From the UHGV virus genome UHGV-0101498: 33,788 nucleotides of DNA, one strand, 5' to 3'. The position numbers and the translations under genes were made by a program. Below are positions 4,031 through 28,289 of the stretch, piece after piece. The DNA comes from a virus. Below the pieces are notes generated by a model that saw only the letters and a list, made by a program, of their open reading frames with translations, made no database searches and was not told the DNA's origin. Position 1 is the stretch's first letter. Each line of letters begins with the position of its first letter.

Positions 4031-4052
4031 CTGCGTTTGGGGGATATGAAGT

Positions 4053-4695: not shown

Positions 4696-4922
4696 TGGCT
4701 GATGCAATGGATCTCGTACAGCAGCGCGTTGAAGAAGAACGCCAGCGTCATATCCGTGCTGCCCGTGCCAAAACGCCGGGCGTGTCCCGCGTGCTTTGCA
4801 TTGAGTGTGAAGCGCCAATTCCGCCAGCACGCCGCCGTGCCATTCCGGGTGTGCAGCTTTGCATTACCTGTCAGGAAATCGCAGAGCTGAAAGGCAAACA
4901 TTACAACGGAGGTGCTGTATGA
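4695..4922 (+). CDS. TraR/DksA-family C4 zinc-finger protein (75 aa)
   Basis: CIECEAPIP...(16 aa)...CITCQ; AGGAG RBS; a conserved small protein of P2-like early operons. Confidence 0.7.
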   Translation: MADAMDLVQQRVEEERQRHIRAARAKTPGVSRVLCIECEAPIPPARRRAIPGVQLCITCQEIAELKGKHYNGGAV

Positions 4923-5776
4923 GCACCATCCTGAAATGGGCGGGAAATAAAACCGCCATTATGTCCGAACTGAAAAAGCATCTTCCTGCTGGCCCGCGAC
5001 TGGTTGAACCTTTCGCGGGTTCCTGTGCAGTGATGATGGAGACGGAGTACCCCAGCTATCTTGTTGCGGATATTAATCCTGATTTAATCAACCTCTATAA
5101 AAAGGTTGCTGCTGATTGTGAATCGTTTATATCTCGCGCCAGAGTTTTATTTGAGATCGCAAACAGGGGGGTGGCTTATTACAACATAAGGCAGGAGTTT
5201 AATTACTCAACTGAAATTACTGATTTCATGAAAGCGGTATATTTCCTGTATCTCAATCGTCACGGTTACCGTGGTTTATGTCGCTATAACAAGAGCGGGC
5301 ATTTCAACATTCCCTACGGTAATTATAAAAATCCGTATTTCCCTGAAAAAGAAATTCGCGCATTTGCAGAAAAAGCCCAGCGAGCAACGTTTATCTGCGC
5401 CAGCTTTGATGAAACGCTGGCGATGTTGAAGGCGGGGGATGTGGTGTATTGCGATCCGCCGTATGACGGTACGTTTTCCGGCTATCACACTGATGGTTTC
5501 ACTGAAGATGACCAGTATCACCTGGCATCCGTTCTTGAACATCGGTCATCAGAAGGACATCCGGTCATTGTTTCTAACAGTGATACATCCCTGATCCGTT
5601 CGCTGTATCGCAATTTTACTCACCACTATATCAAGGTAAAACGCAGCATCGGTGTGGCAGCTGGCGAGGGTAAATCAGCAACAGAAATCATTGCTGTTTC
5701 CGGGCCGCGCTGCTGGGTGGGATTTGATTATTCGCGTGGCGTGGATAGTTCTGCCGTGTACGGAGTACGTGCATGA
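4919..5776 (+). CDS. dam: DNA adenine methyltransferase (Dam-like N6-adenine MTase), 285 aa
   Basis: FAGSCAV SAM-binding motif and DPPY catalytic motif ([10 protein letters not shown]); GGAGGT RBS; stop overlaps the A start (ATGA). Confidence 0.85.
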
Positions 5777-8187
5777 GCCATGCCGATATGAACAACTGCT
5801 GCGGCTTTAACGAGGCTGCCGCAGCGTTCTCATGGAACAGCCCGAAAAAGGCCATTAACCCTTATCTGGACCCGGCGGAAGTTGCGCCGGTTTCTGCGCT
5901 TTCAAACCTGATCGCTCTGTACGCTGCCGATAACGAACAGGAACACCTGCGCCGCGAGGCACTGAGTGATCAGGTCTGGGAGCGTTATTTCTTTAATGAA
6001 TCCCGTGATCCTGTCCAGCGCGAAATGGAGCAGGATAAGCTCATTAGTCGGGCAAAGCTGGCGCATGAGCAGCAGCGTTTTAATCCAGATATGGTCATTC
6101 TGGCGGACGTCAATGCCCAGCCTTCCCATATCAGCAAGCCGCTGATGCAACGTATTGAATACTTCAGCAGCCTGGGCAGGCCAAAGGCTTATTCCCGCTA
6201 TTTGCGTGAGACGATTAAGCCATGTTTGGAGCGACTGGAGCATGTACGCGACAGCCAGCTATCTGCATCTTTTCGTTTTATGGCAAGCCATGTAGGGCTG
6301 GACGGCCTGCTGATTCTGCCTGAAATGAGTCAGGATCAGGTGAAACGCCTGTCTACTCTTGTCGCTGCGCATATGAGCATGTGTCTTGATGCCGCTTGTG
6401 GTGATTTGTACGCCACCGATGATGTTAAGCCAGAAGAAATCCGCAAGACATGGGAAAAGGTGGCAGCAGAAACCCTGCGACTGGATGTTATCCCGCCTGC
6501 GTTTGAGCAACTTCGTCGGAAAAGAAACCGCCGTAAACCCGTGCCCTATGAACTCATTCCGGGTTCGCTGGCGCGTATGTTGTGCGCCGATTGGTGGTAC
6601 CGGAAATTATGGAAGATGCGTTGCGAATGGCGGGAAGAGCAGTTGCGTGCTGTTTGCCTGGTCAGCAAAAAAGCATCTCCCTATGTCAGCTATGAAGCCG
6701 TGATGCATAAACGTGAGCAGCGCCGTAAGTCGCTGGAGTTTTTCCGTTCTCATGAACTGGTGAACGAAGACGGCGACACGCTGGACATGGAGGATGTGGT
6801 AAACGCCAGCAGCAGCAACCCGGCGCATCGCCGCAATGAGATGATGGCCTGTGTTAAAGGTCTGGAGCTTATCGCAGAAATGCGCAGTGACTGTGCCGTT
6901 TTCTACACTATCACCTGTCCGTCGCGTTTCCATTCCACGCTCAATAACGGCAGACCAAACCCGACCTGGACAAACGCGACGGTAAGACAAAGCAGCGATT
7001 ATCTGGTCGGCATGTTTGCTGCATTTCGTAAGGCTATGCACAAAGCCGGGTTGCGCTGGTATGGCGTGCGGGTGGCTGAACCGCATCATGACGGCACAGT
7101 TCACTGGCACCTGTTGTGTTTCATGCGCAAAAAAGACCGCCGCGCCATTACTGCATTGTTGCGTAAGTTTGCCATCCGTGAAGACCGCGAGGAGCTGGGC
7201 AATAACACGGGGCCACGCTTTAAGTCTGAGCTGATAAACCCGCGCAAAGGTACGCCAACAAGCTACATCGCGAAATACATCAGTAAGAACATTGACGGGC
7301 GTGGTCTGGCTGGCGAGATCAGCAAGGAAACGGGTAAATCCCTGCGTGATAACGCTGAATACGTTAATGCCTGGGCGTCTCTGCATCGTGTTCAGCAATT
7401 CCGCTTCTTTGGTATTCCGGGGCGTCAGGCTTACCGTGAACTTCGCTTGCTGGCTGGTCAGGCGGCAAGGCAACAGGGTGACAAAAAAGCAGGTGCGCCG
7501 GTACTGGATAACCCGCGTCTTGATGCCATTCTGGCTGCTGCTGATGCTGGTTGTTTTGCCACCTACATCATGAAGCAGGGCGGCGTACTGGTTCCCCGTA
7601 AATATCACCTCATCAGAACCGCTTATGAAATCAACGAAGAGCCGACCGCCTATGGCGATCACGGCATTCGTATTTATGGCATCTGGTCACCCATTGCAGA
7701 GGGCAAGATCTGCACTCATGCAGTGAAGTGGAAAATGGTTCGTAAAGCCGTTGACGTTCAGGAGGCGGCAGCCGACCAGGGCGCTTGCGCCCCTTGGACT
7801 CGTGGCAATAACTGTCCCCTTGCTGAAAATTTGAACCAACAGGAGAAAGATAAATCAGCTGATGGGGACCCCAGAACGGACATTACCAGCATGGATGACA
7901 AGGAGTTGCACGATTACCTGCACAGTATGAACAAAAAAGAGCGCCGGGAACTGGCTGCAAGGTTACGCCTGGTGAAACCGAAACGGCGTAAAGACTACAA
8001 ACAGCGAATTACAGACCATCAGCGACTGCAGCTCGTGTATGAGCTGAAGTCCAGAGGATTTGATGGCAGCGAGAAAGAGGTCGATTTACTCCTTCGCGGA
8101 GGCAGTATTCCGTCAGGAGCAGGCCTGCGTATCTTCTATCGGAACCAGCGTTTGCAAGAAGATGATCAGTGGCGGAACCTGTATTAA
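5773..8187 (+). CDS. A: Replication initiation protein A (rolling-circle endonuclease, P2 gpA-like), 804 aa
   Basis: Large ORF in the P2 gpA position; motif [16 protein letters not shown] (paired tyrosines) and HWHLLCF (HUH-like). Confidence 0.85.
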
Positions 8188-8279
8188 TTACGCGGGTTAA
8201 CAATTCGTGCTCTTAATAATACCAGGCATATCAGGCTGATGAACGTAAAAAAACGTTTTACATCAGTAAGATTATTATA

Positions 8280-8299
8280 TACTGTAAATATAAACAGTG
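8280..8299. promoter_or_regulatory. LexA (SOS) box tACTGT-N8-ACAGtg upstream of the tum-like operon
   Basis: Seen directly: CTGT(8282-8285)-N8-ACAG(8294-8297), about 42 bp upstream of the ATG at 8341. Confidence 0.7.
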
Positions 8300-8340
8300 G
8301 TTATGCGTACAGTATTGCGTGTGGTGTCATAGGAGGAAAG

Positions 8341-8529
8341 ATGCAGGACTATTTTTTGGAGTCTTTGAAGCTCCAGCGCATTGATTTTTTTCTTAAGCTT
8401 GTAGCGGCTAGCGAGTGTAGTGATGAAGAGAAGGGGCTGGCTCTGCAGTGGGTTTCTGAATTGACTGATGAACTCATGGCAAAAATCAGAACCCACGAAT
8501 ACAACCGCTCAATGGATGTCATCAGCTGA
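8341..8529 (+). CDS. Small protein (62 aa), candidate Tum-like antirepressor N-terminal module
   Basis: AGGAGG RBS; directly downstream of the LexA box and followed by a DinI-like ORF, matching the recalled layout of the 186 tum locus. Confidence 0.45.
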   Translation: MQDYFLESLKLQRIDFFLKLVAASECSDEEKGLALQWVSELTDELMAKIRTHEYNRSMDVIS

Positions 8530-8539
8530 GGTGACTTTT

Positions 8540-8773
8540 ATGCGCATTGAAATAATGATCGATAAAGAGCAGAAGATTAGCCAGTCTACCCTGGACGCCC
8601 TTGAATCCGAGCTTTACCGCAATCTGCGCCCCCTGTATCCCAAAACGGTAATTCGCATTCGCAAAGGTAGCTCTAACGGTGTGGAACTAACCGGACTGCA
8701 ACTGGACGAAGAAAGAAAACAAGTGATGAAAATTATGCAGAAGGTGTGGGAAGACGACAGCTGGCTGCATTAA
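8540..8773 (+). CDS. DinI-family protein (77 aa)
   Basis: MRIEIMIDK...LDALESELYRNL...VWEDDSWLH follows the DinI pattern (MRIE..IAK...DAL..EL...TWESADDWF); GAGGTG RBS. Confidence 0.7.
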   Translation: MRIEIMIDKEQKISQSTLDALESELYRNLRPLYPKTVIRIRKGSSNGVELTGLQLDEERKQVMKIMQKVWEDDSWLH

Positions 8774-8908
8774 GAAACGTTGCTGGCGTCTGAACTTGCT
8801 TCTGGCGTCAGCAAGGTTGAACAACGAGCCCTTGCGAGGCGTTAGCTCTGTAGTGCATGTCTATGCCGCATGAGATCGCATGATCGTTTGAGGATCGTTT
8901 TTGCTAAG

Positions 8909-8933
8909 GCCCGCCAGAACTGGCGGGCTTTTG
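8909..8933 (+). terminator. Rho-independent terminator after the tum/DinI-like operon
   Basis: GC-rich inverted repeat GCCCGCCAG/CTGGCGGGC followed by TTTTG. Confidence 0.6.
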
Positions 8934-8977
8934 CGTAGATCATGCAGGTGCATGAAAACCACTACATAAAGCGGGCA

Positions 8978-8996
8978 GGCGTGGCGGGGATACGAG
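8978..8996. other. Putative cos (cohesive-end) site
   Basis: GGCGTGGCGGGGATACGAG resembles the 19-nt cohesive ends of P2/186 (recalled as GGCG[A/T]GGCGGGGAAAGCA...); lies between the A-side genes and Q. Confidence 0.5.
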
Positions 8997-9078
8997 CGCG
9001 CGCTTGCTCTTGAAATGAGAAAGTTAATTGGTTAACTTTTTAAGCAGGGTCAACGCACTGTTGAGCAAAGGAGTGAGT

Positions 9079-9726
9079 ATGATTAGTACAGGACATATTG
9101 TCGCTGTTGGCGCGGTTGATGCAGGCGAAGTAAAATTACTGGGTACCGGTTTTGTCATCTCTAATGACAAGATAATTACATCTCGGCATGTAATTCGTGG
9201 TTTTGCTTTTAATATAATAATTTCTCCTTCGGAGATTAATGATTTTAATCTTTATCAAGATACTACAATCAACAGAATTCAGTATTATTCTGTTGAGGTA
9301 ATTGATGAGGATCCAATCAGAGATCTTTGTGTTTTGAAATTTAAGGCAGGATCGTTTTCTGGGCCCAATATTATCCTCTCAAGCTTAGATAAAATATCTA
9401 TTGGTGAAGAAGTTGGTGTTTTGGGTTACCCTCATTGTAATGAGGGTAGAAAAGTACTTACATTCCAAACAGCAAGAGTCGGTGCTAAGGTTTTACTTTC
9501 GAGTAATAATGTAAAGTCTAAACATGCAGTTATAAATTTGCAATCAAGACCAGGTCAATCAGGTTCAGTTATTTTTAATTTAAAAAATAATGAGGTTGTC
9601 GGGGTGTTAGTTGGTGCTTATACAAATAATGCAGCGGGCTCTGTATTTATTGGAGGAATTAATCCTGCAGCTTTGCATCAAACTACTTATGCGATTTCAG
9701 CTGAATATATTAAGGATATGTTATGA
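9079..9726 (+). CDS. Trypsin-like (S1 family) serine protease, 215 aa, cytoplasmic (no signal peptide apparent)
   Basis: Catalytic triad candidates His37 (TSRHV), Asp82 (RDLCVLKF), Ser161 (GQSGS); AGGAG RBS 5 nt before ATG; AT-rich. The ORF track starts at TTG 9028. Confidence 0.75.
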   Translation: MISTGHIVAVGAVDAGEVKLLGTGFVISNDKIITSRHVIRGFAFNIIISPSEINDFNLYQDTTINRIQYYSVEVIDEDPIRDLCVLKFKAGSFSGPNIILSSLDKISIGEEVGVLGYPHCNEGRKVLTFQTARVGAKVLLSSNNVKSKHAVINLQSRPGQSGSVIFNLKNNEVVGVLVGAYTNNAAGSVFIGGINPAALHQTTYAISAEYIKDML

Positions 9727-10169
9727 TCTCTATACCAAATGAAGATGCTGAAGCTTGGCTATCTACCTTAAAAAAATATCAATCATCAACTATTAAATCC
9801 TTTCTCGAGCAAGGTACGGAAGAGCAAGCTCTTGAATCATGGTTAACAGCTTCAGGCCCAAGTTTAACATCTCCATTTGGAGGGGATGCTTCCAGCATGC
9901 CGGGTAAAAAGGCATTTGTTGATCAGTTTAAGCAAGAGTTTAGAGCTTTTGTTTGTGGAAGCGATAAATATGTCAAAGAGAGGAATGGATTGGGTGAGCT
10001 TGGCGGGGATATTAAAACCTATCTTGTCAGTGTTATTTCAAGTTCAATTGCTACCTCTTTAGGTACTACTACAGTATTTATTGCTCCCGCTGTTGTAATC
10101 ATGCTTATTACGATCTCAAAAATGGGTCTTAATGCGTGGTGTTCATTAGAAACCGTAAAAGACTCTTAA
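9723..10169 (+). CDS. Small protein (148 aa) with a soluble N-terminal region and a C-terminal hydrophobic membrane segment; partner of the protease
   Basis: Start overlaps the protease stop (ATGA); C-terminal stretch YLVSVISSSIATSLGTTTVFIAPAVVIMLITISKMGL is predicted transmembrane. Confidence 0.65.
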   Translation: MISIPNEDAEAWLSTLKKYQSSTIKSFLEQGTEEQALESWLTASGPSLTSPFGGDASSMPGKKAFVDQFKQEFRAFVCGSDKYVKERNGLGELGGDIKTYLVSVISSSIATSLGTTTVFIAPAVVIMLITISKMGLNAWCSLETVKDS

Positions 10170-10200
10170 AAAAACCGCCCATAAGGGCGGTATATTTTTT
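10168..10200. terminator. Bidirectional rho-independent terminator between the protease operon and Q
   Basis: AAAAAAA-CCGCCC-ataa-GGGCGG-tatTTTTTT; hairpin flanked by an A-run and a T-run. Confidence 0.7.
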
Positions 10201-11224
10201 ATAAATTATAAAGTTCAAATTGAATAACCTCCTCTCCTAACCATTTGTTTACTTCCTTCATTCTTTCCTGTAGTGGGATTAGCTCGTTACGCACAAATAC
10301 CTTGCTGGCTTTTTCTATGTCACCGAATCCTCCTGTGTTCTGAGGAATGATGCCCATTAATTGTGGCGGAACACGATGAACTGCCAGCATGTCATCACGA
10401 GATACGTTTTTTATATTCAGGAACTCATCCTTTGCCGCTACTTCTGACAGAGGGATGATCTGGATGCCATCCTTTTTGCCGTTAGGTGAGTACATAAACA
10501 GGTTGCGGAAGTTGCCCGGGCCCTTGGCGCTTTTCATGGCATGGCGGATGTTGTTCACGTCTTCCTGGTTCTGTGCGGCGTCGGTCATGTACATGATGAA
10601 CCCTGCATGGCTGCCGTTGATGTAATACTTGCGGCGGAACAGTGTGGCGGACTCGTTCAGTAGGGCGGAAGGGATGGCTGACAAGTACTCCGGCAGGCCG
10701 TAAATCTCCTGGCTTAAGTCCGGCTCCATCAGGTGAAAAATGCTGCCTTTGGTGAACTCGTAGGGCTGAGTGCTCATACCGTATTGCACAAACCAGTAGG
10801 TATCAAGATCCAGGCCACGGCGGGTATATTTCGCCAGCGATGGCTCCAGCGACAGAGTGCCCCCGAGGCGGTTAGTGCGCTTTTCCAGATAGGCATTACC
10901 GAATACCAGATAGTCCTGCACAAAGCGGCTGAATGCCTGCTGGCTCAATAGCGGATGCGGAATAAACGTGCTTGTCAGGATGTTGCGCTTAACGGCAATC
11001 GGTGAGCTGTGATGTACGGCTGCACGGTGGGTACGCGCCAGCCCGTCAAAACTCACCGGCGGTTCAAACCAACGCTCCATCTGTACGCATTCCACATAGT
11101 CCAGCAGTTCACGGCGGTCCAGAACAGGAACGGGATCGCCAAAGCTGAATGCTTCGGCTGAAGTCTGGCTTTTATGCTTGAGCTGATTCGTCGCCGCAGC
11201 GCGGTTTTTCTTACTCTTTCCCAT
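10199..11224 (-). CDS. Q: Portal protein (P2 gpQ-like)
   Basis: 341-aa translation in the P2 Q position, convergent with the terminator; ATG at 11224 overlaps the P stop. Confidence 0.85.
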   Translation of the reverse strand: MGKSKKNRAAATNQLKHKSQTSAEAFSFGDPVPVLDRRELLDYVECVQMERWFEPPVSFDGLARTHRAAVHHSSPIAVKRNILTSTFIPHPLLSQQAFSRFVQDYLVFGNAYLEKRTNRLGGTLSLEPSLAKYTRRGLDLDTYWFVQYGMSTQPYEFTKGSIFHLMEPDLSQEIYGLPEYLSAIPSALLNESATLFRRKYYINGSHAGFIMYMTDAAQNQEDVNNIRHAMKSAKGPGNFRNLFMYSPNGKKDGIQIIPLSEVAAKDEFLNIKNVSRDDMLAVHRVPPQLMGIIPQNTGGFGDIEKASKVFVRNELIPLQERMKEVNKWLGEEVIQFELYNL

Positions 11225-12990
11225 CAAAAAATCTCCACAATATTGCTGGTATTGGCGGATTCGCCCTGCAGCGGTTCGTTAAACAGTGCGTGCATCGTTG
11301 CCCAGGCCAGATCGGCGTGGCTGGCTTCTTCGCTGCGGCTGGCTTCATAGGTCGGGCGGTTGCCGCTGGCGGTGGTGGCGCGACGGATTGCCATGAATGA
11401 CTGCGCAATGTCGGTGTGCCCGGCGTCAAACTCCAGACGGCGGTGGCTGATAATGTCGTAGGCCTTGAGTACCAGGGCGTTTTTAACATTGGGGTTGTAG
11501 ACAAACTCCCGGACGGCAGGAAAGAACGCTTTCACGTTCTCATAAACCCCGTGACCAACGCCGGTTGAGTCGATACCGATATAGGTCACGTTGTACTGTT
11601 CGGTGAGTTTTTTGATGGCGTCAGCCTGGGCGCGGAAGTCCATCCCGCGCCACTGGTGACGCTCAAGAATGCGGAACTTACCACCCGGCACGGCTGGCGG
11701 AGCCACCACCACGCATCCGGCACTGTCGCCGTTCTGCGTACCTTTTGCCGGGTCATAACCGATCCACACTTCGCGCCAGCCAAACGGGCGCAGGGCCAGT
11801 GCATGAAAGTCGGTCCAGACTTCCCAGCTGTCCACCATGCACGCCTGCAGTTCGCTGAGCGGGAACACGGACGCGAGATCGTCCACGAACTCGCACATCA
11901 GCAGGTTCTGGTATTCGTCCGGGCTGTACTCCATGCGTAGCTGGTCGAGGTCGAACAGGTTACAGCCGCCGCGCACCGCATCTTCCACGGTGACTATCTG
12001 GCGGTATTGCCCGTCTGCGCACAGCAGGCCGGGGGCCAGATTGCTGTGGGACAGGTCGATGTCCACCTTGTCAGCTTTGTTGCGTCCACGGTTGAACAGC
12101 GCACCGGACCAGAACGGATAAGCACTGTGGGTCAGGCTGGATGGCGTGGAAAAATAGGTTTGTCGCCATTTTTTGTGAATAGCCATCCCGGAAGCCACTT
12201 TGCGCAGCTCCTGGAATTTCGGTATCCAGAAATATTCATCCAGATACAGGTTGCCGTGATAACTCTGGGCCGTGCGGGCATTGGTGCCGAGGAAGTAAAG
12301 CGTGGCTCCGTTAGGAAGCACCATCGGATCGCCTTTTAGCTCCACCTCGACTTCTTTGGCGAAGTCGATGATGTATTGTTTAAAGACGTGGGCCTGAGCC
12401 TTACTGGCGGAAAGGAAAATCTGGTTACGTCCGGTAAGCAGGGCGTCAATCAGGGCTTCACGGGCAAAGTAAAAGGTCGCGCCGATCTGGCGTGACTTCA
12501 GCAGGTTGCGGATGCGGTTGGTTTTTCCGGCTTCCCACCAGTGGCGCTGGTAGTTGAACATGGAGGAATGGAAGATTTCTTCCAGCTTCTCAATCTGTTC
12601 ATCGGTGAAGACATTCTTTTCCGGCTGACGGCGCGGGCCTTTGTTGCGGTTGGCGACGTTAGGGTTTAAGTCAGCTTCGTTGCCGCCATTGTTAAACTTG
12701 CCGATCCGCGCGTGGCGCTCAGACTGGCGCGCCAGCAGGTCAATCTCTTTGAAATCTTTCCCTTCTTTGTGCTCCTTCATAATGAGCTGACAGTAGCGTG
12801 CGGCGGTGGTGAGCTGCATCTGATCCAGCGGCCCATAGTCACCCCACTTGTCGCGTTTTTTCCAGCTGTGAACGGTTGCAACTTTCTCGCCCAGCATTTC
12901 AGCAATGCGGGCGACGCGGTATCCCTGAAAGTACAGCAGCATGGCCTGCCGACGGGGATCGAGATCTGCGGGTGTCAGTGTGGTGTTCAT
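11224..12990 (-). CDS. P: Terminase large (ATPase) subunit (P2 gpP-like), 588 aa
   Basis: Large ORF upstream of Q on the same strand, divergent from O, as in P2. Confidence 0.85.
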   Translation of the reverse strand: MNTTLTPADLDPRRQAMLLYFQGYRVARIAEMLGEKVATVHSWKKRDKWGDYGPLDQMQLTTAARYCQLIMKEHKEGKDFKEIDLLARQSERHARIGKFNNGGNEADLNPNVANRNKGPRRQPEKNVFTDEQIEKLEEIFHSSMFNYQRHWWEAGKTNRIRNLLKSRQIGATFYFAREALIDALLTGRNQIFLSASKAQAHVFKQYIIDFAKEVEVELKGDPMVLPNGATLYFLGTNARTAQSYHGNLYLDEYFWIPKFQELRKVASGMAIHKKWRQTYFSTPSSLTHSAYPFWSGALFNRGRNKADKVDIDLSHSNLAPGLLCADGQYRQIVTVEDAVRGGCNLFDLDQLRMEYSPDEYQNLLMCEFVDDLASVFPLSELQACMVDSWEVWTDFHALALRPFGWREVWIGYDPAKGTQNGDSAGCVVVAPPAVPGGKFRILERHQWRGMDFRAQADAIKKLTEQYNVTYIGIDSTGVGHGVYENVKAFFPAVREFVYNPNVKNALVLKAYDIISHRRLEFDAGHTDIAQSFMAIRRATTASGNRPTYEASRSEEASHADLAWATMHALFNEPLQGESANTSNIVEIF

Positions 12991-19943: not shown

Positions 19944-20838
19944 CCTTTCGCAGTTGCCTGCACCGCAGATTGTGGATGTGCCGGACTTTGAGACGCTGCT
20001 TGCCGAACGCAAGGCAGAATTTGTGGCGCTTCATCCGAAAGATAAGCAGGAAGCAGTGATCCGCACGCTGGAACTGGAATCTGAACCCGCCACTAAATTG
20101 TTGCAGGAGAACGCTTACCGTGAGTTGCTTCTGCGCCAGCGCATTAACGAAGCCGCGCAGGCGGTGATGGTGGCTTACGCGATGGGCGGCGATCTTGACC
20201 AGCTCGCTGCCAACTACAACGTGACACGCCTGACGGTGACGCCTGCTGATAATGATGCTGTGCCGCCCGTTGCAGCTGTGATGGAAAGCGATGAAGCGTT
20301 GCGCCTGCGTGTGCCTGCAGCCTTTGAAGGGCTTTCTGTTGCGGGGCCAACTGCAGCTTATGAATTTCATGCCCGAAGCGCCGACGGTCGGGTGGCGGAT
20401 GCCAGTGCAACCAGCCCGGCACCTGCAGAGGTGGTGCTGACTGTCCTTAGCCGCGAAGGCGATGGAACTGCAGAAAAAGACCTGCTGGACGTGGTGGAAA
20501 AAGCTCTGAACAGTGAGAACGTCCGCCCGGTGGCTGACCGTCTTACGGTTCGCAGCGCAGAAATCATCCCGTATCGCGTGGAAGCCACCATTTTTCTCTA
20601 TCCTGGACCGGAAGCAGAGCCGGTAATGGCAGCGGCAAAAGCCAGCCTGCAGAAGTACATCGCCAGTCAGACGCGTCTTGGTCGGGATATTCGCCGTAGC
20701 GCCATCTTTGCCGCCCTGCATGTTGAGGGGGTGCAGCGTGTGGAGCTGGCTTCTCCTCTGGCGGATGTGGTCCTGAACAAAACACAGGCGGCATCATGTA
20801 CGCAGTGGAGCGTAACCAACGGAGGAACGGATGAATAG
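19930..20838 (+). CDS. J: Baseplate wedge protein (P2 gpJ-like)
   Basis: ATG 19930 (MAVIDLS) after GGAG; position after W. Confidence 0.8.
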   Translation: MAVIDLSQLPAPQIVDVPDFETLLAERKAEFVALHPKDKQEAVIRTLELESEPATKLLQENAYRELLLRQRINEAAQAVMVAYAMGGDLDQLAANYNVTRLTVTPADNDAVPPVAAVMESDEALRLRVPAAFEGLSVAGPTAAYEFHARSADGRVADASATSPAPAEVVLTVLSREGDGTAEKDLLDVVEKALNSENVRPVADRLTVRSAEIIPYRVEATIFLYPGPEAEPVMAAAKASLQKYIASQTRLGRDIRRSAIFAALHVEGVQRVELASPLADVVLNKTQAASCTQWSVTNGGTDE

Positions 20839-21436
20839 TCTGCTGCCACCGGGTTCAACACCACTGGAGCGCCGACTGGCGCAAACCTGCAGCGGGATTT
20901 CTGATCTGCAGGTGCCGCTTCGTGACTTGTGGAATCCGGCAACCTGTCCGGTCAGTTTCCTGCCTTATCTCGCCTGGGCGTTCTCTGTGGATCGCTGGGA
21001 CGAGGGCTGGACAGAAAGCGTCAAGCGCCAGGTGGTGAAGGATGCTTTTTATATTCATCAGCATAAAGGGACCACCAGTGCCGTGCGGCGGGTGGTGGAG
21101 CCGTTCGGATTCCTGATCCGCATTATTGAGTGGTGGCAGACCGGAGAAACACCGGGCACGTTTCGCCTGGATATCGGCGTGCAGGACCAGGGCATCACTG
21201 AAGATACCTATCTGGAACTTGAGCGACTGATAAGCGATGCCAAACCATGTAGCCGCCACATGATCGGCATGTCCATCAATCTGCAGACCAGCGGCCCGCA
21301 TTGGGTGGGAGCCGCCAGCTATCTTGGCGAAGAAATCACGATCTATCCGTATATCAACGAAACGATTATTTCCGGTGGCACCGCGCATGAAGGCGGGGCG
21401 GTCCATGTTATTGACACAATGAGAGTGAATCCATGA
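20831..21436 (+). CDS. I: Baseplate/tail protein (P2 gpI-like)
   Basis: Position and length; overlaps the J stop. Confidence 0.75.
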   Translation: MNSLLPPGSTPLERRLAQTCSGISDLQVPLRDLWNPATCPVSFLPYLAWAFSVDRWDEGWTESVKRQVVKDAFYIHQHKGTTSAVRRVVEPFGFLIRIIEWWQTGETPGTFRLDIGVQDQGITEDTYLELERLISDAKPCSRHMIGMSINLQTSGPHWVGAASYLGEEITIYPYINETIISGGTAHEGGAVHVIDTMRVNP

Positions 21437-22896
21437 GCACAAAATTTTATACCCTGCTGACGGATATTGGCGCGGCGAAACTTGCCAGCGCCGCCGCGCT
21501 CGGTGTGCCGCTAAAAATTACCCATATGGCGGTGGGCGATGGCGGTGGAGTATTGCCAACGCCGGACGCAAAGCAGACGGCACTGGTAAATGAGAAACGC
21601 CGGGCTGCGCTGAATATGCTTTATATCGACCCGCAGAACAGCAGCCAGATTATTGCCGAACAGGTGATCCCTGAAAACGAGGGCGGTTGGTGGATACGTG
21701 AAGTGGGCTTGTTTGATGAGTCCGGGGCATTGATTGCCGTGGGCAACTGCCCGGAAAGCTATAAGCCGCAACTGGCTGAAGGTAGCGGGCGCACTCAGAC
21801 CGTGCGCATGGTGCTGATTACCAGCAGCACGGACAATATCACCCTGAAAATCGACCCTGCTGTAGTGCTGGCAACCCGCAAGTATGTGGATGACAAGGCA
21901 CTGGAGCTGAAGGTGTACGCGGATGATCAGATGGCAAAACATCTTGCCGCACCGGACCCGCATTCACAGTACGCGCCAAAAGCCAGCCCGACATTTACCG
22001 GAACCCCCAAAGCGCCAACGCCAGCGGCGGGGAATAATACCACGCAGGTTGCGACCACTGCGTTTGTACAGGCGGCACTGACGGCCCTTATTAATGGTGC
22101 GCCAGCCACGCTGGACACGCTGAAAGAAATAGCCGCAGCCATTAACAATGATCCGAATTTCAGTACCACCATTAACAATGCGCTGGCACTAAAAGCACCG
22201 TTGTCGAGTCCGGCACTCACCGGAACGCCAACAGCCCCCACGGCGGCGCAGTCGGTCAACAATACACAGATTGCCACTACGGCTTTTGTGAAATCGGCGA
22301 TTGCAGGAATGGTGGGTTCTGCACCTGCTGCACTGGATACACTGAACGAACTGGCGGCGGCACTGGGGAATGATCCGAACTTTGCCACGACAATGCTTAA
22401 TGCGCTGGCAGGTAAACAACCGCTGGACAATACGCTTACCAATTTGAGTGGAAAGGATGTAGCTGGTCTTCTCACATACCTTGGTTTAGGAGAAGGCTCA
22501 GCATTGCCTGTTGGCGTACCTGTTCCGTGGCCTTCAGTCACACCGCCAACAGGCTGGCTGAAATGCAACGGTGCAGCTTTTTCTGCCGAAGAGTATCCGG
22601 AACTGGCAAAAGTTTATCCGACAAATAAATTGCCAGATTTACGCGGCGAATTCATTCGTGGGTGGGATGATGGAAGAGGAATTGATTCAGGACGGACTCT
22701 CCTGTCTGCTCAGGACGGGAGCATTGAGGCACACGGCCATGATTACAATGGGGCCATCTATACTTCTAGCGGTCCTTCCTGGGCTAATACGACGGATGCG
22801 GGACACCGGGCATATTCGGGATTTACATCATCATATGGCGGGAGCGAAACCCGTCCACGAAATATTGCATTTAACTATATCGTGAGGGCTGCATAA
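21433..22896 (+). CDS. H: Tail fibre protein (P2 gpH-like), C-terminal tail-collar-type receptor-binding domain
   Basis: N-terminus MSTKFYTLLTDIGAAKLA...MAVGDGGG as in P2 H; internal repeats; C-terminal WLKCNGAAFSAEEYPELAKVYP...LPDLRGEFIRGW. Confidence 0.85.
   Translation: MSTKFYTLLTDIGAAKLASAAALGVPLKITHMAVGDGGGVLPTPDAKQTALVNEKRRAALNMLYIDPQNSSQIIAEQVIPENEGGWWIREVGLFDESGALIAVGNCPESYKPQLAEGSGRTQTVRMVLITSSTDNITLKIDPAVVLATRKYVDDKALELKVYADDQMAKHLAAPDPHSQYAPKASPTFTGTPKAPTPAAGNNTTQVATTAFVQAALTALINGAPATLDTLKEIAAAINNDPNFSTTINNALALKAPLSSPALTGTPTAPTAAQSVNNTQIATTAFVKSAIAGMVGSAPAALDTLNELAAALGNDPNFATTMLNALAGKQPLDNTLTNLSGKDVAGLLTYLGLGEGSALPVGVPVPWPSVTPPTGWLKCNGAAFSAEEYPELAKVYPTNKLPDLRGEFIRGWDDGRGIDSGRTLLSAQDGSIEAHGHDYNGAIYTSSGPSWANTTDAGHRAYSGFTSSYGGSETRPRNIAFNYIVRAA
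21982..22422 (+). repeat. Two tandem repeats of about 73 aa inside the tail fibre gene H (phage-fibre repeat)
   Basis: Translation shows ...TGTPKAPTPAAGNNTTQVATTAFV...DTLKEIAAAINNDPNFSTT... repeated as ...TGTPTAPTAAQSVNNTQIATTAFV...DTLNELAAALGNDPNFATT... Confidence 0.7.
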
Positions 22897-23495
22897 TGGA
22901 TAACGCCGTATTAAATAGCGAGCTTATTGCCACGAAGGCGGGGAATATTACTGTTTATAACTATGATGGTGAGACGCGGGAATATATTTCTGCATCAACT
23001 GAATATCTTGCAGTGGGTGTCGGTATTCCAGCATATTCCTGTTTAGACGCTCCTGGTACATCTAAGGCTGGTTATACAATTTGCCGTTCTGTGGATTTAA
23101 AATCATGGGAATATGTGTCAGACCATCGCGGTGAAATCGTCTATAACACCGAAACGGGAGAATCGAAAGAAATCACAGCTCCGGGTGATTATCCTGAAAA
23201 TACAACCACTATCGCCCCGTTAACGCCATACGATAAATGGGATGGTGAAAAATGGGTGACGGATATCAATGCTCAGCACGTAGCGGAAGTGGAAGCGGCA
23301 GAGCAACAGAAATCTGTGCAGCTTCTGTTCGCAAAGGAAAAGATCATTCTTTGGCAGACTGAATTACAGCTGGGAATTATCAGCGACGAAGATAAAGAAA
23401 AACTAATATCTTGGGTGAACTATATCAAAGCTGTTCAGGCAGTAGATACCCAGAAAGCTCACAATATCATCTGGCCTAAAAAACCATTCATATAA
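22896..23495 (+). CDS. G: Tail fibre assembly chaperone (P2 gpG-like)
   Basis: Immediately follows H with an overlapping start/stop; 199 aa. Confidence 0.8.
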   Translation: MDNAVLNSELIATKAGNITVYNYDGETREYISASTEYLAVGVGIPAYSCLDAPGTSKAGYTICRSVDLKSWEYVSDHRGEIVYNTETGESKEITAPGDYPENTTTIAPLTPYDKWDGEKWVTDINAQHVAEVEAAEQQKSVQLLFAKEKIILWQTELQLGIISDEDKEKLISWVNYIKAVQAVDTQKAHNIIWPKKPFI

Positions 23496-23497
23496 AT

Positions 23498-23522
23498 AAA
23501 CGCCCCTTATGGGGCGTATTTT
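23498..23522. terminator. Bidirectional rho-independent terminator between G and the convergent acyltransferase gene
   Basis: AAACGCCCC-ttat-GGGGCGT followed by ATTTTG. Confidence 0.65.
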
Positions 23523-24676
23523 GCTGCTTGCACGTTATTCTTTGGAAGAATTTTATTTGATAAATAATTGGAAAATTTTATCGCGTTATCATCAATTAGC
23601 AATTTAAAAATTAAAGCTGCAAGTATTGAAGATAATAAAGTGATTGGGAAAGTAATAAGTAAAGACTTTCCGTATGAAACTCCTGCATCACCAAGCTTAA
23701 TTACGATCAAAGAAGATATTGAAGCTATTAATGGAAAATGCACCAGATAAAGAGAGTATGATACATCTCCAAGAAATTTACAGGTTTTTGTTTTGAATAA
23801 ATTTGAGATAACTATTGATTTATCAATTGCTATAATAAGAAACATTGAACCAAAGGCTTGAGAAACAATTCTCAAATCAAAGTAAGTTATGTCACTGTTA
23901 TTTATCCAGATACTATGTTCAGTTATAAAATATGGGTATGAACCTAGGTAACATCCTAGTAAAATAAACATAAAGATAATTGTGGTATTAATTTTCTTTA
24001 TATTAACTGAAACATCTGCACAAATCACCCCTAATATAAATCCTAATAGATGACTTGAGCTAAATACCACAATACCCAAAGTATAAAAAGCAAACCTAAT
24101 TCTGGTAGTGCAAACTAGTGGGACCAGAACGAGTACAAGAATTGAGCCAACCAATTCGGTGTGAATGGTCCATAATACTGGGTTTAATGTTTGAACTCCG
24201 TAAAAATATGTACCAATACCCCCTTCCCATACCGCATTCAGTAATGTCATTGTAGTTGGCATCGCTGGGATTACTTGTGATAAAGAGTACACTGCAGTTT
24301 CTGATGAATGAAATCCAATCGTTGTCATCAGAATAAAGGAAAATATAGTAGATGCAATGGTAGGTATTGCAAGACGTGGGTATCTCTTGATAATGGATTT
24401 AGAGTACCATTCTAGCCCCTTCCCTTTGAAAAAGGGAATCGATAGAACCATTCCACTCAAAACGAAGAAAAGCATTACGGCAAAGTGACCATTATATAAT
24501 ATATTAAATGGAGTTTCACTTATGTATTTCTCTCCATAATGATCTATCTGATTTTGAACAAAAACAGATGGTAGAAAGAATTGCATGAAATGGCTTATTA
24601 AAACTATCAAGCAAGCTATACCACGAATACCATCCAGTGCGTGATCTCGGGAAGGCGTCGTTAATTGTTGAACCAT
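23507..24676 (-). CDS. Integral-membrane acyltransferase (acyltransferase-3/OafA-like); candidate O-antigen or surface-polysaccharide acetyltransferase
   Basis: About 390 aa with about 10 predicted transmembrane helices; N-terminal LDGIRGIA...LISHF motif; AT-rich. Alternative start at 24691. Confidence 0.75.
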   Translation of the reverse strand: MVQQLTTPSRDHALDGIRGIACLIVLISHFMQFFLPSVFVQNQIDHYGEKYISETPFNILYNGHFAVMLFFVLSGMVLSIPFFKGKGLEWYSKSIIKRYPRLAIPTIASTIFSFILMTTIGFHSSETAVYSLSQVIPAMPTTMTLLNAVWEGGIGTYFYGVQTLNPVLWTIHTELVGSILVLVLVPLVCTTRIRFAFYTLGIVVFSSSHLLGFILGVICADVSVNIKKINTTIIFMFILLGCYLGSYPYFITEHSIWINNSDITYFDLRIVSQAFGSMFLIIAIDKSIVISNLFKTKTCKFLGDVSYSLYLVHFPLIASISSLIVIKLGDAGVSYGKSLLITFPITLLSSILAALIFKLLIDDNAIKFSNYLSNKILPKNNVQAAKYAP

Positions 24677-24918
24677 CAATTCCTCACACATTGTAATAAA
24701 GTATTAAAATAAAATAGTAAAAGCAGAATATACAAATACGAAAAGCGGAATTATACTTTACAAGAGTGCTTGATGCTATTGTTTTGTCGAGATTTATAAT
24801 CTGATCTTCTGTAGATGTTGTCCTGGCATTGTCCAATCATGATCTATGGGCTGGCTGGCGAACTTTCGATAGTGCGAGTATTGAATGATTTCCAGCCGTT
24901 ACCGATTTTACGTGTTAA

Positions 24919-25167
24919 TTAGTGAACAAACCACTCGTCAGCAGATTCCCAGGTATCTTTCAGAGTCTCCTGAACAAAAGTTTTTGCAGAATCCTTATCT
25001 GCGGTGCGTGTAACAGAAAGGCCATCGTTGCTGGTGGCTTTTACGATCACCTCTACATCGTCATAACGTTTACTGATGCGTCGGGTTAATTCTTCCTTTA
25101 ACGCATCCACAGCACCGGTTGGCATTTTAGTCATTTTTTCTTTGGCTATGCAGATTTCAATACGCAT
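24919..25167 (-). CDS. DinI-family protein (82 aa)
   Basis: [31 protein letters not shown]...[11 protein letters not shown], strongly DinI-like; GAGGGA RBS. Confidence 0.8.
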
Positions 25168-25180
25168 AAAAGTCCCTCTA

Positions 25181-25200
25181 TACTGTGTTTGTATACAGTA
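25181..25200. promoter_or_regulatory. LexA box TACTGTGTTTGTATACAGTA (near-perfect palindrome) upstream of the DinI-like gene
   Basis: CTGT-N8-ACAG seen directly, 14 bp upstream of the start codon. Confidence 0.75.
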
Positions 25201-25208
25201 TTATTTTT

Positions 25209-25228
25209 AACTGTATGGATAAACAGTG
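25209..25228. promoter_or_regulatory. Second LexA box aACTGTatggataaACAGtg
   Basis: CTGT-N8-ACAG, 8 bp from the first box; abuts the stop of the tyrosine recombinase gene. Confidence 0.6.
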
Positions 25229-25855
25229 TCAAGAGGTCTTATTTCTGCTCCTTTGGAGCTCTTCAAAACGATTATGTAAAGATTTCGGATACAGTTCGGT
25301 ATATACCTGCCATAGCACGTTTAATGAACGATGCCCTGTAACCTGGGCGACTTCCTCAATACTAAAACCAGCCTCAAATAAGCGACTTGCCCCTTCTCTA
25401 CGCAAATCATGGTATCGCAGATCTTTAATACCTAATTTGCTTCTTACCCTCTGGAATCCCGCAGTAACAGAAGTGCTGTTATATGGAAAAATGAATTCTG
25501 ATTTTTTGGGTTGTCGTTGGACGATATCCCAGGCTTCCCCAAGCAAGGCTACTTTCATATGGTTGCCTTCCTTTTTACGTGGATCTTTCCTGTCTCTTAC
25601 GAGTATGGATTTTTGTTCCTGATCGAGATCCTCCCATCGTAATCGGCATACTTCACCGATTCGCATACATGACCACACAGAAAATTTGAGGATATCAACG
25701 AACGGAATTTTTGAGCATTTATGTGTAGATCGTTGTTGAAGACCTTCAATGAGCATGTCCAGTTCATCAGATGCCGGTCTACGATTACGACGATTTGATT
25801 TACCAATTAAACCAACGTTTAAGAAAATGCAGAGGTAACAGCTAACTGGCATCAT
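25229..25855 (-). CDS. Short tyrosine recombinase (catalytic domain only, about 208 aa): FimB/FimE-like switch recombinase or 5'-truncated integrase
   Basis: R (RIGEVCRLR), HxxR (YHDLRREG) and H...Y (GHRSLNVLWQVYTELY) motifs present; no N-terminal core-binding domain; no good RBS. Confidence 0.55.
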   Translation of the reverse strand: MMPVSCYLCIFLNVGLIGKSNRRNRRPASDELDMLIEGLQQRSTHKCSKIPFVDILKFSVWSCMRIGEVCRLRWEDLDQEQKSILVRDRKDPRKKEGNHMKVALLGEAWDIVQRQPKKSEFIFPYNSTSVTAGFQRVRSKLGIKDLRYHDLRREGASRLFEAGFSIEEVAQVTGHRSLNVLWQVYTELYPKSLHNRFEELQRSRNKTS

Positions 25856-25882
25856 CTCCGGTTTTTATTCAGGGGGATGATC

Positions 25883-26449
25883 ATGCTTATTGGCTATGTA
25901 CGCGTGTCAACAAATGACCAGAACACCGATTTGCAACGTAATGCACTGAACTGCGCGGGATGTGAGCGGATTTTTGAGGACAAAATCAGTGGCACTAAGT
26001 CCGACAGACCGGGGCTGAAAAAACTACTCAGGACACTATCGGCAGGAGACACGCTGGTTGTCTGGAAGCTGGACATGTTGGGGCGCAGTATGCGGCATCT
26101 TGTTACGCTGATAGAAGAGTTGCGCCAGCGTGGTGTGAATTTCAGAAGCCTGACTGACAGTATTGATACCAGTACCCCAATGGGCCGTTTCTTTTTTCAT
26201 GTCATGGGTGCCCTGGCTGAAATGGAACGCGAACTGATAGTTGAACGTACCAGGGCAGGGCTGGCTGCAGCTCGTGCCAAAGGCAGAGTAGGTGGACGCC
26301 GTCCTAAGTTGACCACCGAACAGTGGGCACAGATTGGGCGTTTACTCGAGGCCGGAGAATCAATACAGCGTATTGCACTGATTTTTGATGTAGGCGTTTC
26401 TACCATTTATAGAAAATTTCCGGCAAATAAGATCAATGAATCCCCCTGA
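25883..26449 (+). CDS. Serine recombinase, DNA invertase of the Hin/Gin/Pin family (188 aa)
   Basis: MLIGYVRVSTNDQNTDLQRNAL...SLTDSIDTSTPMGRFFFHVMGALAEMERELIVERT with a C-terminal HTH, nearly co-linear with Hin/Gin as recalled; GGGGG RBS 6 nt before the ATG. Confidence 0.85.
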   Translation: MLIGYVRVSTNDQNTDLQRNALNCAGCERIFEDKISGTKSDRPGLKKLLRTLSAGDTLVVWKLDMLGRSMRHLVTLIEELRQRGVNFRSLTDSIDTSTPMGRFFFHVMGALAEMERELIVERTRAGLAAARAKGRVGGRRPKLTTEQWAQIGRLLEAGESIQRIALIFDVGVSTIYRKFPANKINESP

Positions 26450-26497
26450 ATCAGCATTATGTTGATTATCCCTGCAAGCAGACAAATACCGTTATTT

Positions 26498-26515
26498 TGT
26501 GTGAATAACGACACA
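26498..26515. promoter_or_regulatory. Late-promoter activator dyad TGT-N12-ACA upstream of FI
   Basis: TGTgtgaataacgacACA seen directly, 86 bp upstream of the FI ATG. Confidence 0.55.
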
Positions 26516-26591
26516 ACTGCGCTTAGCTGTTTGTCAGGCACAATCACTTCAACATAGGGCGAAGCCTAATCCAATCAGGAGGTTCGCCACT

Positions 26592-27764
26592 ATGGCTCAG
26601 GATTACCACCACGGGGTGCGCGTTGTTGAAGTCAACGAAGGCACCCGATCTATTACCACGGTGAGCACCGCCATCGTGGGTATGGTCTGCACGGGCGATG
26701 ATGCCGATGCAAAAATGTTTCCTCTTAATAAACCCGTGCTGATCACTGATGTGCTGACTGCCAGCGGTAAAGCGGGTGAGTCAGGTACTCTGGCCCGTTC
26801 GCTGGATGCCATCGCTGACCAGGCAAAACCCGTGACCATTGTTGTGCGTGTGCCGCAGGGTGAAACGGAAGACGAAACCACGACCAATATCATCGGCGCA
26901 GTGACTGCTGAAGGTAAAAAAACAGGTATGAAAGCCCTGTTATCTGCCCAGTCACAGCTCGGCGTTAAACCGCGCATTCTCGGCGTGCCAGGCCACGACA
27001 CCAAGGCGGTAGCTACTGAGTTGCTGAGCGTGGCGCAAAGCCTGCGTGGATTTGCTTACCTGTCAGCGTATGGCTGCAAGACAGTGCAGGAGGCGATCAC
27101 TTACCGCGAAAACTTCAGCCAGCGCGAAGGGATGCTGATCTGGCCTGACTTTACTGGCTGGGACACGGTGCTGAATGCCGAAGCAACGGCATATGCCACC
27201 GCCCGTGCGCTTGGTCTGCGCGCCAAAATTGACGAGCAGACCGGATGGCACAAAAGCCTGTCCAACGTGGGCGTGAACGGTGTCACCGGAATTTCTGCAG
27301 ATGTGTTCTGGGATCTGCAGGACCCGGCAACCGATGCAGGTCTGCTGAACCAGAACGACGTCACCACGCTTGTGCGTAAAGACGGTTTCCGCTTCTGGGG
27401 TTCCCGCTGCCTGAGTGATGACCCGCTCTTTGCCTTCGAAAACTACACCCGCACGGCGCAGGTGCTGATGGACACGATGGCAGAAGCACACATGTGGGCG
27501 GTGGATAAACCGCTTAACCCGTCGCTGGCCCGCGACATTATCGAAGGTATCCGCGCCAAAATGCGCAGCTTGGTCAGTCAGGGCTATCTCATTGGTGGTG
27601 ATTGCTGGCTGGATGAGTCGGTGAACGACAAAGACACACTGAAAGCCGGAAAACTCACCATCGACTACGACTACACGCCAGTGCCGCCACTTGAAAACCT
27701 GATGCTGCGTCAGCGCATCACCGATCAGTACCTGGTGAATTTCGCCAGCCAGGTCAGCGCGTAA
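26592..27764 (+). CDS. FI: Contractile tail sheath protein (P2 gpFI-like)
   Basis: 390 aa; position and P2 FI-like pattern. Confidence 0.9.
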
Positions 27765-27773
27765 GGGGACAAC

Positions 27774-28289
27774 ATGGCTTTACCACGCAAATTAAAACAC
27801 CTGAACCTGTTTAACGACGGGAACAACTGGCAGGGGATCGTTGAGTCGCTGACGCTGCCGAAATTTACCCGCAAATATGAGAAGTATCGCGGCGGCGGAA
27901 TGCCGGGTGCGGTGGATGTGGATCTGGGGCTTGATGACAGTGCGCTGGACACAGAATTTTCCATTGGTGGTACTGAATTGCTGCTGTTTAAACAGATGGG
28001 TAAAGCCACGGTGGATGGCATCCAGCTGCGCTTTACCGGCTCTATTCAGCGTGACGATACCGGGGAAGTGCAGGCCGTGGAGCTTGTCGTGCGTGGACGT
28101 CACAAAGAAGTGGATTCCGGCGAGTGGAAGACGGGCGAAAGCAACACCACCAAAGTGACCAGTACCAACAGCTACGCGAAGCTGACCATCAATGGTGAGG
28201 TGCTCTATGAAGTGGACCTTATCAACATGGTGGAAATTGTGGACGGTGTGGACCTGATGGAAGCGCACCGCAACGCCCTCGGCCTCTGA
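27774..28289 (+). CDS. FII: Tail tube protein (P2 gpFII-like)
   Basis: 171 aa, immediately after the sheath gene. Confidence 0.85.
   Translation: MALPRKLKHLNLFNDGNNWQGIVESLTLPKFTRKYEKYRGGGMPGAVDVDLGLDDSALDTEFSIGGTELLLFKQMGKATVDGIQLRFTGSIQRDDTGEVQAVELVVRGRHKEVDSGEWKTGESNTTKVTSTNSYAKLTINGEVLYEVDLINMVEIVDGVDLMEAHRNALGL

Follow-up and report, generated by a model that had tools for sequence, protein, structure and literature searches.

A DinI-like gene behind two predicted LexA operators, apparently imported with an invertible tail-fiber cassette into a P2/186-like prophage

What does a DinI-like gene placed behind two LexA boxes do for the prophage that carries it, and does it form a pair with a second DinI-like gene of the same prophage? 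The question is raised by a locus in the window, by which we mean the whole 33,788-nucleotide stretch of virus genome UHGV-0101498 analyzed here. The elements of the locus are listed below.

24919–25167, minus strand: DinI-like gene under study, 82 amino acids; intact open reading frame with an ATG start
25173–25178, minus strand: Shine-Dalgarno sequence GAGGGA, read from the sequence; 5 nt 5' of the ATG and kept in homologues
25181–25200, strand not assigned: proximal LexA box (box 1), TACTGTGTTTGTATACAGTA; just 3' of the -10 region, over the expected transcription start
25203–25209, minus strand: -10 region TAAAAAT, from a consensus scan (10/12 matches, 18-nt spacer)
25209–25228, strand not assigned: distal LexA box (box 2), AACTGTATGGATAAACAGTG; fills the spacer between -35 and -10
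25227–25232, minus strand: -35 hexamer TTGACA, a perfect match; contains the stop codon TGA (25229–25231) of the truncated integrase gene int'

The 82-aa product matches the Pfam DinI profile PF06183 over its entire length (positions 1–63 of 63; E 1.1e-19, 70.9 bits against a cut-off of 24.2) as well as PHROG 189, "RecA filament binding protein DinI" (E 6e-31). E. coli DinI (1GHH) aligns with it end to end (E 4e-13) at 49% identity. The AF2 model of the protein (pLDDT 79) contains strands and helices in the order E, H, H, E, E, H, H, with the long C-terminal helix in two parts, and predicts the alpha/beta fold of DinI with its long C-terminal helix. A Foldseek search with this model returned 7YWA_A (TM 0.78–0.82) and 1GHH (TM 0.81–0.82) as the only significant matches; the next match appeared at E 0.02. 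Chromosomal DinI of E. coli (b1061; 1GHH, 7YWA) has the same length as the 82-aa protein and the fold predicted for it.

Cryo-EM of the RecA-DinI complex located the RecA contacts of E. coli DinI in a hydrophobic pocket (L13, L21, W71, W77, and F78) and an acidic patch (E24, E69, and D76) (PMC9926225). According to the alignment, the corresponding residues in the 82-aa protein are M15, L23, W73, W79, and F80 for the pocket and E26, D71, and E78 for the patch, so that all eight contact positions are retained or conservatively replaced. The protein reaches 73 bits with NCBIfam NF007893, the equivalog model of chromosomal DinI, which has a cut-off of 111. "DinI-like", the name of identical and near-identical proteins in NCBI records, is therefore the right label rather than DinI itself, and because the identity to DinI is only 49%, the quantitative behavior of the protein could differ. 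Proteins 100% identical to the 82-aa product are encoded on dozens of IMG/VR contigs. A literature search for the function of phage DinI-like proteins retrieved annotation-level remarks only.

The promoter of the gene is predicted from a sigma-70-like consensus match, and the GenBank record of the lambdoid phage mEp460 annotates the same promoter. Its minus-strand order is TTGACA-CTGTTTATCCATACAG-TTAAAAATAATA-CTGTATACAAACACAG-TATAGAGGGACTTTT-ATG. Both predicted operators overlap it: the distal box occupies the spacer between the two hexamers; the proximal box, separated from the distal one by a gap of 8 bases, begins 2–3 nt past the -10 region and would therefore cover the expected transcription start. 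The 33.8-kb window contains three exact CTGT-N8-ACAG motifs where 0.52 would be expected, and 2 of 100 shuffles also reached three; the third copy, at 8282–8297, precedes the other DinI-like gene. Compared with the LexA consensus TACTGTATATATATACAGTA, the proximal box matches at 17 of 20 positions and the distal box at 15 of 20. We also scored both with a heterology-index (HI) matrix derived from known LexA operators of E. coli, whose values are approximate. The proximal box has an HI of 2.8, the best in the window, and the distal box has an HI of 5.4, which in this matrix surpasses several genuine operators of E. coli; the best site in each of 30 block-shuffles had a mean HI of 11.6 and a minimum of 7.2. 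The two predicted boxes are more than chance. The first-pass annotation had placed a DinI-family reading frame directly behind two LexA-type boxes 8 bp apart, and the reading frame, its PF06183 assignment, and both boxes are confirmed.

Homologous loci were gathered from IMG/VR scans and genomes and comprised 48 distinct upstream sequences from E. coli, Pantoea, Trabulsiella, and IMG/VR contigs. A profile scan of genome contigs with the DinI alignment contributed only 7 loci; the diversity came from three IMG/VR scans. Two CTG-N10-CAG boxes occupy the same positions in 44 of these 48 promoters, which precede genes for proteins 60–100% identical to the 82-aa product. One box is missing from three promoters and both boxes are missing from one, which indicates that the pair is not obligatory. 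Among 45 distinct promoters, 0.9% of sequences vary at the 12 core CTG/CAG positions and 14.6% at the other 53 promoter positions, which makes the core 16-fold less variable; the Mann-Whitney p of 4e-5 for this comparison is only indicative because the promoters are related to one another. The distance from box to box ranges from 24 to 29 bp across homologues, and each box keeps a fixed position relative to its own promoter element (-35 or -10). From this combination we infer that the boxes act as separate roadblocks and not as a helically phased pair; cooperative, helically phased binding of LexA was rejected on the same range of spacings. Similarity among the homologues begins at the -35 hexamer in at least six unrelated upstream contexts, which marks this point as the edge of a mobile unit.

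Comparison with known systems shows that the locus is of a familiar kind. Phage mEp460 shares 97.6% identity with positions 24849–25823, which take in the gene, its promoter, and the 3' end of int; the mEp460 gene is recorded as encoding a DinI-like protein (mEp460_021) and, like the gene in the window, adjoins the stop codon of a tyrosine integrase. Prophages in complete E. coli genomes match positions 24700–25823 at 99.9% identity, and the E. coli prophage protein WP_001217553.1 ("DinI-like family protein") is identical to the 82-aa product. In contrast to mEp460, the integrase in the window is cut to its C-terminal half, and the module lies inside an invertible tail-fiber segment rather than at a prophage end. 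The chromosomal dinI gene of strain K-12 is controlled by LexA through one canonical box, ACCTGTATAAATAACCAGTA, with the -10 region inside it, whereas members of the 82-aa clade have two boxes that flank the -10 region.

The closest experimental precedent comes from the Salmonella prophages Gifsy-1, -2, and -3, each of which has a LexA box in front of a dinI homologue, the first gene of a LexA-controlled antirepressor operon (PMC3121763). These dinI homologues, with their LexA boxes, rose 4.6- to 23-fold with nalidixic acid (PMC8072944). They are prophage-borne, LexA-repressed, and damage-induced by experiment, whereas for the gene in the window LexA control and damage induction are predicted from sequence. 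Salmonella also has proteins of the same 82-aa type, which are about 75% identical to the one described here. The matches to mEp460 and E. coli prophages, together with the Gifsy precedent, identify the locus as an element of an already known kind. The Gifsy homologues differ from the gene in the window in that they head an operon with an antirepressor gene and irsA; no antirepressor gene follows the gene in the window. A Gifsy-type dinI-antirepressor-irsA operon was accordingly rejected, since no plausible antirepressor reading frame is found 3' of the DinI-like gene.

E. coli rcdA forms the left flank of the window, and the prophage is a P2/186-like (Fels-2/186-like) myovirus with an integrase, CI, CII, replication protein A, tail sheath, and late genes. 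Its CI repressor contains the domains PF07022 and PF16452, which are those of 186 CI, and Peptidase_S24 scores below the cut-off; we conclude from these domains that the repressor is of the 186-CI type and not of the type cleaved with RecA. With such a repressor, induction should run through cleavage of LexA and then through an antirepressor instead of RecA-stimulated cleavage of the repressor. The further SOS locus of the prophage (8280–8773) follows gene A and contains the following features.

8280–8314, plus strand: predicted LexA operator(s) of a tum-type locus; a strong box at 8280–8299 and a weak overlapping box at 8295–8314
8341–8529, plus strand: 62-aa reading frame, a candidate antirepressor (N-terminal half of a split tum); PHROG 698
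8540–8773, plus strand: Tum-type DinI-like gene (the other DinI-like gene), 77 amino acids; PF06183 at E 7e-23

This locus is equivalent to the p95 SOS operon of phage 186, whose record annotates a LexA site within p95 at the place equivalent to 8280–8314. It is also the counterpart in the window of 186 Tum and of the split tum genes of Fels-2 and PSP3, which represent LexA-controlled DinI-like sequences in P2/186-like phages. The tum gene is split in two in Fels-2 and PSP3 (PMC3121763), and the Fels-2 counterpart of the 62-aa reading frame is 98.4% identical to it in a tblastn search. No similarity was detectable between the 62-aa reading frame and the N-terminal half of 186 Tum, which would be expected if that half is immunity-specific. 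The 77-aa protein is 41% identical to residues 71–145 of 186 Tum and only 31% identical to the 82-aa protein. In the alignment it lacks two of the three acidic RecA contacts, the positions of E69 and D76 being taken by K and S, respectively. We conclude from these relationships that the gene at 8540 is the DinI half of a Fels-2-type split tum and belongs to the switch by which the phage itself is induced. The first-pass annotation reported a second SOS-wired DinI-like gene at 8540, and this gene is present behind a strong predicted LexA box. That both DinI-like genes of the prophage lie behind LexA boxes is also correct; they are not, though, equivalent paralogues, one being half of a tum gene and the other imported. 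An Rfam scan of the window yielded nothing that reached a gathering score.

The foreign origin of the gene at 24919 becomes apparent from the DNA around it, which has the following features.

22469–22494, plus strand: left 26-bp crossover site, TTCTCACATACC-TT-GGTTTAGGAGAA; one of an inverted-repeat pair, inside the tail-fiber gene 21433–22896
23507–24691, minus strand: Acyl_transf_3 acyltransferase gene (PF01757; GC 28–38%) 3' of the DinI-like gene; possible target of read-through
25229–25823, minus strand: truncated tyrosine integrase gene int', C-terminal ~198 amino acids, catalytic domain only (PF00589)
25802–25827, plus strand: right 26-bp crossover site, ACCAATTAAACC-AA-CGTTTAAGAAAA; a hybrid whose inner half comes from a donor int gene and whose outer half comes from a P2-like phage
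25877–26449, plus strand: Gin/Pin-type DNA invertase gene (PF00239 and PF02796; E 1e-90 to the Gin structures 3UJ3 and 4M6F)

Positions 22470–25823 (3.35 kb) are 99.8% identical to an E. coli prophage integrated at dusA, in which the order is tail fiber, fiber chaperone, acyltransferase, dinI-like, full-length int, and dusA. The flanks (20500–22686 and 25809–28100) are 99% identical to the P2-like phage 500465-1, which carries the usual alternative fiber-tip and chaperone genes beside its invertase at the same place. The GC content of the insert is 28–44% against about 57% in the phage. The 82-aa gene is missing from the closest P2-like relatives, and the cassette is present in unrelated phage backbones. 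These comparisons identify the gene at 24919 as foreign cargo, a passenger in a cassette from another prophage.

The points at which similarity switches between the donor and 500465-1-like DNA are the central dinucleotides of the two 26-bp crossover sites, both of which resemble sites tabulated in PMC4134206 (Table 3). The int gene of mEp460 and the dusA prophages is 1098 bp long in full, and the similarity of int' to the donor ends at 25823. Since donor int supplied the inner half of the right site, the integrase is reduced here to its C-terminal ~198 amino acids. The donor int gene contains a quasi-site, AAACCAA-GTTTAAG, and the invertase apparently captured the cassette by recombining a true site with this quasi-site; alternatively, the junction may have been made by microhomology-mediated illegitimate recombination. 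The G segment of Mu, the C segment of P1, the P segment of e14, and the EC958 prophage segments resemble the cassette in their Gin-like invertase, in 26-bp inverted crossover sites with a central dinucleotide, in a left site inside the tail-fiber gene, and in the occurrence of both orientations. Unlike them, the cassette contains the acyltransferase gene, the dinI-like gene, and int' in place of alternative fiber-tip and chaperone genes, which are absent from its opposite strand. One orientation therefore gives a fusion of the tail fiber to the integrase fragment and not a second fiber.

Inversion of the cassette in silico fused the constant part of the tail fiber in frame to the integrase fragment (544 amino acids). 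A metagenome contig (L222) from a P2-like phage, 97% identical to the late region of the window, has the predicted flipped junction and the fusion, and an e14/Mu-like prophage (L207) likewise carries the cassette, flipped, between its crossover sites. The window's own junction is present in two Logan contigs (L205 and L206). Both orientations of the cassette occur in public data. Neither junction was found in IMG/VR, and among 5,426 complete genomes of E. coli and 50,697 phage records, no place covered at least 80% of the junction-spanning queries; the junction of the window is rare but real. Exact look-up of the 208-aa int' reading frame returned nothing, and versions with alternative start codons were matched. 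The promoter of the dinI-like gene is identical in all cassette copies compared, so that the predicted control by LexA should be independent of orientation.

Capture of the cassette and the existence of both its orientations are nearly established; any regulatory effect of inversion is speculation. In one orientation, the normal fiber would be made, with the dinI-like and acyltransferase genes antisense to late transcription. In the other, the fiber gene would be fused in frame to the integrase fragment, and the two genes would be co-oriented with the late tail operon. It is tempting to speculate that the module resides in an actively inverting, quasi-site-born cassette in which expression of a modulator and a surface enzyme is set jointly by LexA and a phase-variable switch, a proposal we regard as doubtful.

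How far, then, could the gene at 24919 serve the prophage itself? One possibility is that the two DinI-like genes form a joint, dedicated device that tunes RecA and sets the threshold of prophage induction. Both genes lie behind LexA boxes, the annotation of phage 186 states that truncated forms of Tum (its DinI-like part) modulate SOS induction of the 186 prophage, and DinI competes with LexA, UmuD, and lambda CI for the same groove of RecA (PMC9926225). Such a device is nonetheless unlikely given the 186-CI type of the repressor, whose lack of an S24 autocleavage domain above the cut-off leaves RecA no direct action on it, and given that the 82-aa gene is imported cargo that travels in a cassette among unrelated backbones and is missing from the closest P2-like relatives. 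The first-pass annotation had suggested that the prophage tunes RecA activity and its own induction. What stands of this suggestion is a DinI-like gene wired to the SOS response; the remainder is weakened by the 186-CI repressor, by the foreign origin of the gene, and by the Gifsy prophages, in which non-polar deletions of the dinI homologues were without significant effect on induction (PMC3121763, data not shown there). Since a repressor of this type is not cleaved with RecA, the DinI-like protein could tune induction only indirectly, through cleavage of LexA. It is far less probable still, and in our view scarcely credible, that the 82-aa protein serves as all or part of an antirepressor that acts on a phage repressor in the manner of 186 Tum or the Gifsy operons and not on RecA. 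Tum does have a DinI-like half, but the 82-aa protein aligns only with that part (residues 70–141, 30% identity), has no N-terminal extension, and keeps the RecA contacts of which the Tum-type paralogue has lost two of the three acidic ones. A Tum-type arrangement is not found at the locus, where an integrase remnant lies upstream and an N-terminal antirepressor part is absent. The gap of 227 nt between the DinI-like and acyltransferase genes contains only implausible reading frames of 29–50 amino acids and none for an antirepressor, and the antirepressor activity of PSP3 is reported to reside in the non-DinI gene that lies upstream (a personal communication quoted in PMC3121763).

Two further readings concern the promoter. 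If transcription reads through the 227-nt gap, the LexA promoter might mainly drive the acyltransferase gene, so that the DinI-like gene would be the leader of an SOS-inducible surface modification. The two genes share a strand and occur together both in the donor prophage and in the cassette, and consensus scans of the gap found no terminator-like site and no minus-strand promoter-like site; RNA structure in the gap is not significant (z = -0.26). With neither a terminator nor a reading frame in the gap, read-through from one gene into the other is possible. These were simple consensus scans, though, and weak promoters or Rho-dependent termination can escape notice in AT-rich DNA. Moreover, the DinI-like gene of mEp460 and of most homologues stands alone with no acyltransferase gene after it, which indicates that the pairing is recent and not conserved and makes this reading rather improbable. 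We consider it similarly improbable that the distal box is a by-product of the promoter spacer sequence, which would leave the proximal box as the sole real operator. The distal box is the weaker of the two in both its consensus matches and its approximate HI, it is lost in a few homologues, and published lists give one box for the Gifsy dinI homologues (PMC8072944). Against this, its CTG and CAG cores are conserved like those of the proximal box although its inner spacer varies, and its HI surpasses every site in the 30 shuffles and, as noted, several genuine operators.

The reading we favor, and hold to be quite likely on the basis of the sequence comparisons and the structural model, is that the locus is a self-contained SOS "moron" made up of a single 82-aa DinI-like gene with its ribosome-binding site and one promoter that carries two LexA operators, repressed by LexA, with a product that binds RecA filaments, and carried as a passenger. 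In an undamaged lysogen, LexA dimers of the host would occupy the operators in the spacer and over the transcription start and exclude RNA polymerase. Upon DNA damage, RecA filaments would stimulate self-cleavage of LexA, and the dinI-like gene would be transcribed. Judged by its predicted fold and contact residues, the product most likely binds RecA filaments as DinI does; such binding would stabilize the filaments and compete with slower co-protease substrates, for example UmuD or lambda-type repressors. The module would have arrived in the invertible cassette together with a tail-fiber tip, a fiber chaperone, the acyltransferase gene, and half of an integrase gene. The resident switch, of the Fels-2/186 type, would consist of a LexA-controlled antirepressor that acts on a non-cleavable CI, and the effect of the 82-aa protein on it would be indirect, via how fast or for how long LexA is cleaved. 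The most likely course of events at the locus is that LexA represses a strong promoter from two sites and that, once damage has occurred, a protein that binds RecA filaments is produced.

DinI-like genes behind LexA boxes are common in prophages of the Enterobacteriaceae and already annotated, and the 82-aa gene is an ordinary, already annotated member of this group. The role of DinI has been termed elusive (PMC3121763), and the copy at 24919 gives no better handle on the physiological role of DinI-like proteins than other copies do. The canonical RecA-contact surface of the 82-aa protein, set against the degraded one of the Tum-type half, suggests different jobs for the two DinI-like proteins of this prophage. 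Two operators that bracket the -10 region in the 82-aa clade, compared with one in chromosomal dinI, predict tighter repression and later induction. The more unusual part is the genomic setting, in which cargo other than fiber genes resides in a flipping tail-fiber cassette; the cassette provides an example of how an invertase quasi-site may move such cargo between unrelated prophages.

The dinI-like gene (24919-25167, minus strand) lies within an invertible tail-fibre cassette. The crossover site on the right of this cassette is a hybrid, formed in part by a quasi-site that originates in the integrase gene of another prophage.

22469-25827: invertible tail-fibre cassette of 3.35 kb, containing the fibre tip, chaperone, acyltransferase, dinI-like gene and int' (a truncated tyrosine integrase)

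The flipped form of the cassette was found in L222, a P2-like metagenome contig, and in the e14/Mu-like prophage L207. This orientation creates an in-frame fusion between the tail fibre and the integrase fragment. In the donor, a dusA-integrated E. coli prophage, the equivalent of window 24851-24922 (plus strand) overlaps the dinI-like gene at its 3' end; RefSeq annotates this stretch as a pseudogene, a partial "capsid protein", which is probably a leftover of an earlier rearrangement.

The imported 82-amino acid protein encoded by the dinI-like gene retains all three acidic RecA-contact residues. In contrast, two of the three are lost in the DinI-like half of the Tum-type locus (8540-8773), where lysine replaces E69 and serine replaces D76. 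The two proteins may differ in RecA binding. The tum-type promoter contains a pair of predicted LexA boxes.

8280-8314: two overlapping predicted LexA boxes, TACTGTAAATATAAACAGTG and CAGTGGTTATGCGTACAGTA, of the tum-type promoter

The second of these is weak, with an approximate heterology index of 12; the overlapping arrangement resembles that of the tandem boxes in colicin promoters. Comparison of the region upstream of chromosomal dinI in E. coli K-12 (L200) with L174 revealed that the single LexA box of the former is followed by TATATTCAACAG. In some phage alleles, the proximal box ends in a 3' portion of similar appearance (CTGTATATTCAACCAG). The chromosomal promoter may have been derived by deletion from a phage-type promoter with two boxes.

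Two regions of the window contain candidate cargo genes.

1936-2122, minus strand: small ORF between cI and int, with a signal-peptide-like N-terminus and several cysteines
9028-10169: trypsin-like serine protease (232 amino acids; PF13365) and a 148-amino acid ORF, at the cargo spot that follows the tum locus

The small ORF may be a cargo gene. Phage 186 carries orf97 at the cargo spot, whereas the window carries the protease and the 148-amino acid ORF, for which no family match was found, at the same place. The record of a related Klebsiella phage lists a retron-family effector somewhere in the stretch that matches window 603-12000. The cargo spot may be a site for defence genes.

A further predicted LexA box is located at a putative integrase promoter.

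1773-1798, minus strand: strong LexA-type box CACTGGTTATACATACAGTG, preceded directly by a -35 element (TTGACA) and followed by a -10 element (GAAAAT)

The box lies ~30 nucleotides upstream of the actual integrase start (ATG near 1743; MAVRKLTTGKW) and is retained, between diverged flanks, in Klebsiella phage 4LV2017 and E. coli phage vB_EcoM-813R9. In this P2-like group, the integrase may be expressed from an SOS-controlled promoter of its own.
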